Virus record (IMG/VR): IMGVR_UViG_3300045988_044263
Reading direction: 5' to 3' (one strand)
From: a virus
DNA: 17,643 bases
In this document: positions 3,210 through 4,670 of the stretch, piece after piece
Layout of the letters: the number at the start of each line of letters is the position of its first letter
How positions within the stretch are numbered: the first letter of the stretch is position 1
Notes under the pieces: generated by a model
Told to the model about the DNA's origin: nothing
Database searches by the model: none
The model's input: only the letters and a program-made list of their open reading frames with translations
Made by a program: the position numbers and the translations under genes

Positions 3210-4670
3210 ATGCGAGAGCGTCGAACGGCGGTAACGGACGGTGCAACACTATTGGCGGATGACGGCGTGGAACCATTGACGGCGACGGCCGTTATCCGTC
3301 TCACCATGCTCGACCATCATACGCGCGTATGGTGTGCTCACGGATGGCAGGACATTAAGCCCATAGCCGCCGAACTGTTGGCACGACTCCCGTTGCAACC
3401 GAACCCAGCCAAGGACGGTGTATGGGGCACGTTCAACATTCGCGGGCACTTCTACAGTTTTCGCGTGCGCATGGGCGGTACCACCGTGGATTTTCTGGAC
3501 GTGCGCAATGTCACACGTGACGATGGCCTGAATGTTTCACGTGAAACGTTCGGCGGCACGGACGATTTGGAAACCACGTGGAACGTTGCACAGGAATGCG
3601 CCGCCCTGAACCTCAGGGGCACGACCATAGCATCAATGGCAATGACCGACTACATTGATGGCGATTACGCCGGATTCAAACGCCATTTCCCGCCATTGGA
3701 CAGGGGCGACTATCACCGGATGCGCCCCGCCTACTATGGGGCGATAGTGCACAGCAAGCCGGGCGAATACCGGAATTGCCGGAGTTGGGACGTGAACAGT
3801 CTCTATCCGAGCATCATGCACGATGCGCCAATGCCCGTAGGCTCACCCATATGGTATGACGGCGAATATCGACACGACAATGATTATCCGCTACATATCG
3901 ATGTTATCGCGTTTGACGCGCGATTGAAAACGGGAAAAACGGCGACGCTCACCAATATCCTGCCTGTATGGGGGTATGAGGGCGAACGCTTGGATAGCAC
4001 GCTCGGCGTCGTTACCATGCCCGTTACGGATGTGGATTGGGAAACGCTGACCGAAAACTATGACATCCACGTGTGGGAGCACGTGGGCGGCTGGAAGTTC
4101 CGCAAATCACACGGGTTATATTGTGCATACGTGGACAAATGGTTTCACGTGAAACAGGCCGCAACCGGAGAGCGTAGGCAGATAGCGAAACTGCTGCTGA
4201 ACTCGCTGGTGGGGAAATTCGGTGCCTCGCTCTACCGTCCCATGTTGCATCCGAAGCCGTCCGTGGATGGTGGCGTGGATTTTACCGTGGACAAACCCGA
4301 GTCGGCCAGCAGTCTGGCGTGGCTGCCGACCGCCGCATTTATCAACGCCTGCGGACGGCGAATACTATCCCGCGCAATGAACGCGAACGCCGACCGCGTA
4401 CTTTACGCCGACACCGACGGCGTGATATTGGAAGGGTTGGACACACCCTTTGGTATCGAAACGGATGACCGGAAACTAGGGGCGTGGAAAAACGACCATA
4501 CCTATGAGAGGCTCCGTATTCTCGGCAATCGTAAATATTGCGGTGTGGAGACGAGTGGCGATACGGTAATGCGTTTGAGTGGCGTGCATCGTGCCGCTCC
4601 TGTCCTCTATGATGAGTTTCTGCCGGGGTCACGTCATCTCAATGACGACGGCCATGCTTTCGTGCTATAA
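3210..4670 (+). CDS. Family-B, protein-primed DNA polymerase (phi29 gp2-like), 486 aa
   Basis: Recognised motifs:
- Motif A: SWDVNSLYPSIM (3789-3812 core).
- DYPLHI block, identical to phi29.
- Motif B: AKLLLNSLVGKFG (4188-4223).
- A TPR2-length insertion.
- Motif C: LYADTDGV (4404-4421).
- RKY near the C-terminus.

The start is placed at ATG 3210, after AAAAAGGA (3196-3203). The ORF track extends it to 3162. Confidence 0.93.
   Translation: MRERRTAVTDGATLLADDGVEPLTATAVIRLTMLDHHTRVWCAHGWQDIKPIAAELLARLPLQPNPAKDGVWGTFNIRGHFYSFRVRMGGTTVDFLDVRNVTRDDGLNVSRETFGGTDDLETTWNVAQECAALNLRGTTIASMAMTDYIDGDYAGFKRHFPPLDRGDYHRMRPAYYGAIVHSKPGEYRNCRSWDVNSLYPSIMHDAPMPVGSPIWYDGEYRHDNDYPLHIDVIAFDARLKTGKTATLTNILPVWGYEGERLDSTLGVVTMPVTDVDWETLTENYDIHVWEHVGGWKFRKSHGLYCAYVDKWFHVKQAATGERRQIAKLLLNSLVGKFGASLYRPMLHPKPSVDGGVDFTVDKPESASSLAWLPTAAFINACGRRILSRAMNANADRVLYADTDGVILEGLDTPFGIETDDRKLGAWKNDHTYERLRILGNRKYCGVETSGDTVMRLSGVHRAAPVLYDEFLPGSRHLNDDGHAFVL
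3534..3547. repeat. Copy 1 of the 14-nt perfect palindrome GTTTCACGTGAAAC
   Basis: Read directly from the sequence. It lies inside the pol CDS, with codon phase gtt tca cgt gaa acg. The flanks extend it to the near-palindrome AATGTTTCACGTGAAACGTT. Confidence 0.9.
4142..4155. repeat. Copy 2 of the 14-nt perfect palindrome GTTTCACGTGAAAC
   Basis: Read directly from the sequence. It lies inside the pol CDS in a different codon phase (ttt cac gtg aaa cag). Confidence 0.9.

Follow-up and report, generated by a model that had tools for sequence, protein, structure and literature searches.

A compacted N-terminal proofreading domain, predicted to be inactive, in the protein-primed DNA polymerase of a phi29-like phage and its relatives

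Background

The DNA polymerase (DNAP) of phage phi29 is the textbook example of a high-fidelity, strand-displacing enzyme and, to our knowledge, every phage protein-primed polymerase that has been characterised biochemically proofreads. The viral genome IMGVR_UViG_3300045988_044263, a stretch of 17,643 nucleotides that was analysed at its full length (hereafter the window), raises the question what becomes of such an enzyme when its proofreading motifs can no longer be recognised. The window encodes a protein-primed DNA polymerase of family B, 486 amino acids (aa) long, at 3210..4670 (plus strand, like the elements of this protein, the SSB gene and the candidate terminal-protein gene given below), in which a preliminary description, based on a by-eye alignment with phi29 DNAP, found all three catalytic motifs of the 3'-5' exonuclease (ExoI, ExoII and ExoIII) to be apparently lacking. 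Profile alignments, structural models and a comparison of relatives together make it likely, in our view, that the protein is a working phi29-type replicase, protein-primed and strand-displacing, in which the 3'-5' exonuclease domain at the N-terminus has turned into a pseudo-enzyme.

Results

An intact polymerase core without canonical exonuclease motifs

The polymerase part of the protein poses few problems. The Pfam family DNA_pol_B_2 is found with an E-value of 6e-35, and a phmmer comparison with phi29 DNAP (1xhx) gives 2.9e-44, where only residues 155-443 are aligned (to phi29 206-500). The motifs by which the preliminary description had recognised the polymerase domain (DVNSLYPS, DYPLHI, KLLLNSLVGKFG and YADTDG) are indeed all present and intact. 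Motif A (DVNSLYP, aa 194-200, 3789..3809) retains its catalytic Asp and the steric-gate Tyr199, and motif C (YADTDG, aa 399-404, 4404..4421) both catalytic Asp residues; the KxY motif is present as RKY, aligned to phi29, and in the AlphaFold model a hairpin (aa 345-361) occupies the position of TPR2.

The N-terminal part is a different matter. DNA_pol_B_2 covers only residues 134-340 (profile positions 171-389), while in phi29 DNAP the match already starts at profile position 7; no Pfam family was found for residues 1-150 at E<=1, and the N-terminus fails to align to a hidden Markov model (HMM) of the exonuclease domains of intact relatives. In an HMM alignment 123 relatives read D-E-N-D-Y-D at the positions that correspond to phi29 residues 12, 14, 62, 66, 165 and 169. 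A set of 111 long representatives shows at least 90% conservation for each of D, E, H, N, L and D of ExoI and ExoII, Y101, D121, S122, K124, K143, and Y and D of ExoIII, and of these residues the query retains only Asp121, Asp169, Tyr101, His61 and perhaps the Asp residues of ExoI and ExoII (the latter being Asp66). The Kx2h motif is likewise missing, its Lys143 being deleted. Related phages share the loss, a point that the preliminary description had proposed to check: not one of the 28 sequences of the short clade described below contains DxE, Nx2-3(F/Y)D or Yx3D. The earlier statement that all three catalytic motifs are lacking thus holds in the sense that no canonical ExoI, ExoII or ExoIII is present, but it was too strong at the level of single residues, as the ExoIII Asp is kept (D119) and the same may be true for one Asp of ExoI (D10) and that of ExoII (D48).

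The shortness of the N-terminus does not follow from a wrongly placed gene start. The gene begins at ATG 3210, behind an AAGGA ribosome-binding site, and ends with the stop codon at 4668-4670. As the reading frame is closed by a stop about 20 codons upstream of the ATG, no more than 16 extra residues (from a TTG at 3162) could precede it, and 84 orthologs share the start as well as the length (486-489 aa), so that there is no hidden N-terminal piece. The protein is about 89 aa shorter than phi29 DNAP, close to the 85 aa estimated before. The loss, which had been placed mainly in the N-terminal third, is only partly N-terminal: some 50-55 aa are missing before motif A and some 24-34 aa in the C-terminal thumb.

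A compacted DnaQ-like fold

An AlphaFold2 model of the polymerase, built from an alignment of 39 sequences, has a mean pLDDT of 90.9, with values of 87-95 for the N-terminal blocks. In Foldseek comparisons the whole chain matches phi29 DNAP (2pyj_B) with an E-value of 3e-39 and a TMq of 0.85, the GA-1 polymerase with a TMq of 0.80, and the BFVD model of BadAztec1 DNAP with a TM of 0.87/0.90 and a root mean square deviation of 2.2 A, which makes the latter closer than phi29. A canonical relative of 563 aa (P0098) was modelled as well (pLDDT 90.6), so that the secondary structure of an intact exonuclease domain could be mapped. The order of the elements is identical in the two proteins: beta1, beta2, beta3, helix A, beta4, helix B, three strands and a short helix, followed by the long ExoIII helix, a loop of 7 residues that ends in an invariant Thr, and the next helix. 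Profile-profile alignment (hhalign) of the short family with intact relatives gives a probability of 99.7% with small profiles and of 99.95% with deep ones (28 versus 108 sequences). According to both the model and hhalign, residues 1-139 (3210..3626) form a vestigial DnaQ-like exonuclease domain about 50 aa shorter than that of phi29, i.e. the N-terminal domain is, as modelled, a compacted fold and not the result of a domain deletion. The large deletions within it are those of the beta2-beta3 hairpin and of the equivalent of phi29 141-167.

With this map at hand the individual motifs can be located. All strings and positions quoted in the preliminary description are correct (RVW at 3324-3332, AVIRLT at 3288-3305, PLQPNPAKDGVWGTF at 3390-3434, DDLETTWNVAQECAAL at 3561-3608 and DDGVE at 3258-3272), and the differences lie in the way they were matched to phi29. 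The alignment had been anchored by equating RVW with phi29 R23-V24-W25. In fact, RVW (aa 39-41) is part of H37-T-R-V-W-C42, which forms beta4, and aligns with L58-Y59-F60 in the ExoII strand (phi29 D57-L-Y-F60).

In the case of ExoI, the relevant element is beta1 with a conserved T-D-G turn (aa 4-12, 3219..3245). Residues 4-9 make up the strand in the model, D10-G11-A12 turn into a short beta2, and a second D-G pair (18-19) forms the next turn. D10 (3237-3239) is the sole candidate for an ExoI carboxylate; both the small-profile hhalign and MAFFT pair it with phi29 D12, and the deep profile leaves residues 1-23 unaligned. A DxE is absent, as the candidate equivalent of Glu14 at position 12 is Ala (A, V, S or T in the 84 orthologs) and position 8 is Val. 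The segment DDGVE was considered as a cryptic DxE and rejected, in agreement with the preliminary description, because it lies in the beta2-beta3 turn of the model and is not conserved.

The ExoII segment, which had been taken to be deleted, is recovered as a strand and a helix by hhalign, by MAFFT and by secondary structure (HTRVWCAHGWQDIKPIAAELLAR, aa 37-59, 3318..3386), with strand 37-42 and helix 46-59 in the query against strand 62-65 and helix 68-81 in P0098. His44, the equivalent of phi29 H61, is kept, but the position of Asn62 is taken by Gly45 or Trp46. D48 (3351-3353) falls on phi29 D66 in MAFFT, i.e. in the column of the ExoII Asp of the long polymerases, and one residue before D66 in hhalign. 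ExoII is therefore, as far as alignments can tell, degenerate and not deleted.

Between ExoII and ExoIII, the (S/T)Lx2h loop has a remnant in DFLDVRNVTR (aa 94-103, 3489..3518), in which D97 corresponds to phi29 D121 and Ser122 and Leu123 have been replaced by Val and Arg. ExoIII itself has been affected by a deletion, the junction of which lies with the truncated ExoIII helix within residues 115-132 (3552..3605), as seen in both the deep hhalign and the secondary-structure maps. The deep alignment contains a single gap of 27 residues over phi29 141-167, which includes Lys143 and Tyr165; G115-T117 precede the gap, and D118-D119 stand opposite phi29 N168-D169. Helix 119-132, loop 133-139 and T139 in the query correspond to helix 163-185, loop 186-192 and T192 in P0098, and because of the constant offset of 53 between the two maps D119 (3564-3566) equals P0098 D172. 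Yx3D is thus absent, although its Asp is kept as the first residue of the truncated helix, with G115 four residues before it. The earlier pairing of Y165 and D169 with Thr and Val does not stand, since the equivalent of D169 is Asp119, not Val126, and Tyr165 has been deleted instead of replaced. A small-profile hhalign of the ExoIII helix, in which N125 was matched to N168 and two internal gaps interrupted a continuous helix, was rejected; the single-gap alignment is preferred because the lengths of helix and loop also match.

The short polymerases form one clade

Searched with a profile, a set of 1.84 billion representative proteins yielded 17 clusters (at 50% identity) that match over the full length and measure 454-496 aa, after which there is a sharp drop to polymerases of 540-600 aa that match only from about residue 115-135 onwards. 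The 28 short sequences all fall into a single cluster, separate from the intact ones, when a neighbour-joining tree is built from the polymerase domain, and this cluster includes the cultured phages BadAztec1, BD811P2 and BP1. Full-length polymerases whose motifs are intact are found in other phi29-like phages of actinobacteria, namely Curtobacterium phage Reje (574 aa) and Microbacterium phage Curie (603 aa), and in Clostridium phage CI461P1 (577 aa). The degeneration of the exonuclease probably arose once, at the base of a phi29-like clade that includes all cultured Bifidobacterium members.

The nearest cultured relatives by polymerase protein are the Bifidobacterium phages BD811P2, BadAztec, BP1 and others (33-35% identity), and a megablast search of the whole window against cultured phages gave no match at the nucleotide level. 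The metagenomic orthologs comprise more than 80 clusters (486 aa, 84-92% identity), one of which is named from a metagenome-assembled genome of Bifidobacterium breve. The host is probably a Bifidobacterium.

Two side observations concern gene starts and the other polymerases in the tree. The annotated N-termini of BadAztec1 DNAP (L003, 1423-2832) and of P0132 and P0133 begin at the second D-G turn, i.e. without beta1, and in BadAztec2 and BadAztec4 a tblastn match to the window protein extends to query residue 11; some of these annotated starts (BadAztec1 DNAP, P0132, P0133) may have been mis-called. Furthermore, non-canonical residues occur at the catalytic positions of the exonuclease in 17 other protein-primed polymerases of 516-584 aa, all metagenomic (P0137, P0138, P0144, P0173, P0175, P0177, P0196, P0220, P0222, P0231, P0233, P0235, P0236, P0239, P0251, P0265 and P0266). 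They are placed singly or in small groups among the intact ones in the neighbour-joining tree, which suggests, at the level of sequence, repeated independent degeneration. For P0233, a tblastn search against cultured phages yielded no close relative (best hit 31% identity).

Conservation and selection

The N-terminal domain is compact and under strong purifying selection. Among the 84 orthologs the mean column identity is 0.925 in this domain versus 0.921 in the polymerase domain, and the fraction of invariant positions 0.44 versus 0.43. The ratio of nonsynonymous to synonymous substitution rates (dN/dS) is 0.09 for codons 1-139 versus 0.15 for codons 191-486, as calculated from a single pair, namely the window and the related genome L009 (91% aa identity); L008 (P0083) was excluded because an indel breaks the gapless pairing of codons. 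In the same pair the synonymous rate (dS) is 0.54 in the N-terminal domain (3210-3626) and 0.28 in the polymerase domain (3780-4667), a twofold difference within one gene that might reflect recombination or mosaicism.

Which residues are held constant depends on the distance considered. D10, D48, D94, D97 and D119 are invariant in the 84 orthologs, and so are G11, N100 and R103, but as about 43% of all positions are invariant among these close orthologs, invariance by itself carries little weight in either direction. In relatives that are 42-55% identical, position 119 is D, E, P or V (E in P0095 and V in the close sister P0096), which argues against a catalytic requirement. Position 48 varies widely in clade members at 35-55% identity, and a further deletion around it is seen in several members, BD811P2 and BP1 among them. 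D10 is kept in the closer relatives and is Thr, Asn or another residue in some distant members.

Two residues that in phi29 belong to the downstream-template tunnel have been retained. Tyr82 (3453..3455) is the equivalent of phi29 Tyr101 and is invariant across an alignment of 39 short and long polymerases; in the short clade of 28 sequences the position is Y, F or I. Thr139 (3624..3626), in the loop that links exonuclease and polymerase domains, is the equivalent of phi29 Thr189 and is invariant in the same 39 sequences and in all 28 of the short clade. In phi29, Tyr101 and Thr189 contact the downstream template, in a tunnel that is built by the exonuclease domain together with TPR2, palm and fingers, and mutants of the exonuclease metal ligands, D12A/D66A among them, are defective in strand displacement (PMC6351526).

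Motif B and the thumb

Further changes lie outside the exonuclease domain. In motif B (KLLLNSLVGKFG, aa 327-338, 4188..4223) the position of phi29 Y390 is taken by Val334 (4209-4211), and across the short clade by V, I, T or A, whereas Tyr is found in 106 of 116 relatives with an intact exonuclease. In the other lineages with a degenerate exonuclease Tyr is kept in only 7 of 13 (Fisher p = 0.0014, with kinship ignored). This Tyr has been called invariant in family B polymerases, and in the phi29 mutant Y390S the discrimination against wrong nucleotides falls to about 3x10^2 and is lost opposite 8-oxo-dG (PMC1976434). The thumb (aa 444-486, 4539..4667) is truncated throughout the clade, as judged from residue counts and AlphaFold models: 82 residues follow motif C, versus a median of 106 in the long relatives and 116 in phi29, and the arms of the thumb hairpin measure 3 residues in the model versus 10-11. 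Taken together, the changes in exonuclease, motif B and thumb suggest a general relaxation of the fidelity apparatus.

Genome context

The window is a complete linear genome of a phi29-like phage of 17.6 kb, because a perfect pair of inverted terminal repeats is present at both ends: 1..315 (315 nt) is 100% complementary to 17329..17643. The terminal repeats hold direct repeats that are degenerate and rich in T/G (TGTTTTGTT-like, at about 70-141), and the open reading frames (ORFs) called within the terminal repeats look spurious because of their low complexity.

The gene order is of the phi29 type, with genes for the single-stranded DNA-binding protein (SSB), a terminal-protein slot and the polymerase, followed by genes for capsid, tail, connector, packaging ATPase and lysis, and the order of the early genes is unchanged in related genomes. 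The SSB gene lies at 1688..2125 (Pfam Phi29_Phage_SSB, E 5e-14; PHROG 6243). The ORF of 314 aa at 2252..3196 is a candidate terminal-protein gene by its position between the SSB and polymerase genes; Pfam and PHROG gave no match. An ORF occupies the same slot in L008, L009, L002 and Microbacterium phage Curie, where it is the annotated terminal protein of Curie. The product is basic, and position and size (314-323 aa) are kept in L002, L008 and L009. The final codons of this ORF overlap the possible TTG start of the polymerase ORF at 3162.

No other exonuclease or helicase gene was found in Pfam and PHROG scans of nine window proteins (eight of them early-region and small ORFs, the ninth the polymerase or its N-terminal part) and in the gene tables of two related genomes. 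The early ORFs 218-577, 809-1327 and 1340-1657 had no detectable family in Pfam or PHROGs. Downstream of the connector gene, the small gene 10719-10952 of L009 has a precomputed Pfam match to Sequestin (PF21825), and an ORF of 76 aa (10476-10706) is found in the same position in the window.

Discussion

A probable pseudo-exonuclease, possibly retained as a scaffold

By its polymerase motifs, fold and genome context the polymerase belongs to the phi29-type protein-primed family B, and at the same time it appears to fail a near-universal feature of that family, namely proofreading. From the alignments and the models, canonical two-metal proofreading is very probably gone. The losses comprise one ExoI carboxylate, the ExoII Asn, the ExoIII Tyr, the Lys of Kx2h and the Ser/Leu ligands of single-stranded DNA, and up to three Asp residues (D10, D48 and D119) may be left in the active site, so that proofreading should be absent or reduced by orders of magnitude. 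The preliminary expectation of a polymerase that does not proofread is hence probably right, and would apply to the whole clade, but it has to be amended in that the domain itself persists as a constrained pseudo-exonuclease.

Why would such a domain be retained? The conserved tunnel residues Y82 and T139, in combination with purifying selection, suggest a scaffold role in strand displacement. The domain may be kept under strong selection as a wall of the tunnel that it builds with TPR2, palm and fingers around the downstream template, and could in that capacity still serve strand displacement and processivity, and possibly the handling of the terminal protein; the surviving Asp residues may be tied to this role. 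Fidelity would then depend on base selection alone, which is probably relaxed too, because the equivalent of phi29 Y390 is Val, and a genome of 17.6 kb could tolerate the lowered fidelity.

Some points weigh against this interpretation or limit its strength. The five invariant Asp residues leave room for a residual metal site, and weak residual exonuclease activity is conceivable in the query's own subgroup. The register of beta1 (D10 as D12 or as E14) and that of D48 relative to D66 are uncertain by one to two residues, the neighbour-joining tree behind the single origin is crude and carries no support values, and the scaffold role is suggested by analogy with the biochemistry of phi29.

The same residues could also be part of a working, non-canonical exonuclease, in which D10, D48 and D119 bind metal and D94, D97 or E121 perhaps substitutes for the missing Glu, with reduced or altered proofreading as a result. 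We consider this improbable. The five Asp residues are invariant and E121 is present in 83 of the 84 orthologs, D119 aligns exactly with the ExoIII Asp, the ligands of ExoI lie at the C-terminal end of beta1, as D10 does, and the domain as a whole is under strong purifying selection, but Tyr165 and the primer-terminus ligands Asn62, Ser122, Leu123 and Lys143 have been deleted or substituted, and position 12 varies between A, V, S and T. Moreover, D48 and D119 are not conserved at 35-55% identity and D10 is lost in some distant members, while the conservation of D-G 10-11 has a structural reason in that this pair, like D-G 18-19, lies in a beta-hairpin turn. The ExoIII Tyr orients the attacking water, and single substitutions of any of the DEDD carboxylates in phi29 DNAP or the Klenow fragment cut the activity by orders of magnitude.

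Fidelity could alternatively be kept high by proofreading in trans, performed by a host exonuclease (e.g. a DnaQ-like one) or by a phage protein that was not recognised as such. The three early ORFs without a detectable family leave a place for the latter, but no exonuclease-like match was present in the window ORFs that were scanned or in the precomputed Pfam matches of two related genomes. We know of no precedent for proofreading in trans among protein-primed family B polymerases. Phi29-type polymerases, in addition, enclose the primer terminus and are processive without accessory factors, which would give an external nuclease little access (PMC6351526), and we judge this scenario very improbable. 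That the short N-terminus is an artefact, caused by a wrong start call, a frameshift, a faulty assembly or a defective genome, is refuted by our results. Annotated starts do differ between relatives (those of BadAztec1, P0132 and P0133 lie after beta1), but the upstream in-frame stop, the completeness of the genome with its perfect terminal repeats, the 84 independent orthologs of 486-489 aa from many samples, the 17 clusters of 454-496 aa and the same architecture in cultured, viable Bifidobacterium phages leave practically no room for it.

Implications

If the domain is indeed a pseudo-exonuclease, the clade offers a natural set of phages, some of them cultured and viable, whose only replicase carries an apparently dead yet strongly conserved exonuclease domain. 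It can be used to separate the structural role of this domain (strand displacement and processivity) from its catalytic role, which are entangled in phi29 because exonuclease-site mutants also lose strand displacement. Whether a tailed double-stranded DNA phage can live with polymerase-only fidelity bears, furthermore, on the mutation-rate limits of small DNA genomes, and the clade has a bearing on how Bifidobacterium phages evolve in the infant gut. It may also be a source of naturally exonuclease-free enzymes for amplification and sequencing chemistry. The significance is tempered by the precedents for exonuclease inactivation in other family B polymerases and by the fact that inactivity is here a prediction.

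A more speculative extension, which we consider possible but rather unlikely, is that the clade uses a naturally low-fidelity replicase, having lost proofreading and the motif B Tyr and having truncated the thumb, with an error rate orders of magnitude above that of other tailed phages. If true, this would amount to a natural mutator strategy in a tailed double-stranded DNA phage. It could feed the very large microdiversity of gut metagenomes, in which one genus-level group comprises more than 80 distinct polymerase clusters at 90% identity, and it would provide biotechnology with an exonuclease-free, strand-displacing protein-primed scaffold.

Comparison with known systems

No description of exonuclease loss in Bifidobacterium phages or other phi29-like tailed phages was found in open-access text, in records or in a 2024 review that covers Badaztecvirus and BD811P1, and the clade-wide pseudo-exonuclease trait appears to be undescribed. 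The polymerases of BadAztec1 (Badaztecvirus), BD811P1-3 and BP1 (445-481 aa) belong to the same clade and share the compact architecture, the absence of exonuclease motifs and the absence of the motif B Tyr. They differ from the window enzyme in sequence (33-35% identity) and in having no equivalents of D48 and D119; some also lack the strand with D10 as annotated.

With the polymerase of phi29 and those of other characterised phages (Nf, GA-1, Cp-1, PRD1 and Bam35), the enzyme has in common the overall fold, motifs A and C, KxY, the TPR insertions, a linear genome with terminal repeats, the order SSB - presumed terminal protein - polymerase, and Y101 and T189. In contrast to these enzymes, its exonuclease domain is about 50 aa shorter and has no DxE, Nx2-3(F/Y)D, Yx3D or Kx2h, the motif B Tyr is Val and the thumb lacks about 30 aa; the terminal repeats measure 315 bp, whereas those annotated in phi29 have 6 bp.

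For the protein-primed polymerases of mavirus-like virophages and polinton-like viruses (pPolB-S1H), a complete or nearly complete loss of the exonuclease domain has been reported and a lower fidelity suggested (PMC11161782); no further precedent among protein-primed polymerases came up in the open-access literature searched. In these viruses the domain is physically lost and a helicase has been gained (S3H or a fused S1H), whereas in the window the fold is kept and no helicase was found; they are, moreover, eukaryotic viruses with TP-vOTU fusions, and the window is a tailed phage. An analogy at the level of the domain is provided by family B polymerases of eukaryotic cells. In Pol alpha the exonuclease domain has been inactivated. 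The same has happened in Pol zeta (PMC7544198), and in both, as in the window, the exonuclease fold is kept as a structural domain in which the catalytic residues have been substituted. Nevertheless, Pol alpha and Pol zeta are RNA/DNA-primed enzymes of cells in which another polymerase provides accuracy, whereas the enzyme described here is the sole replicase of its phage.

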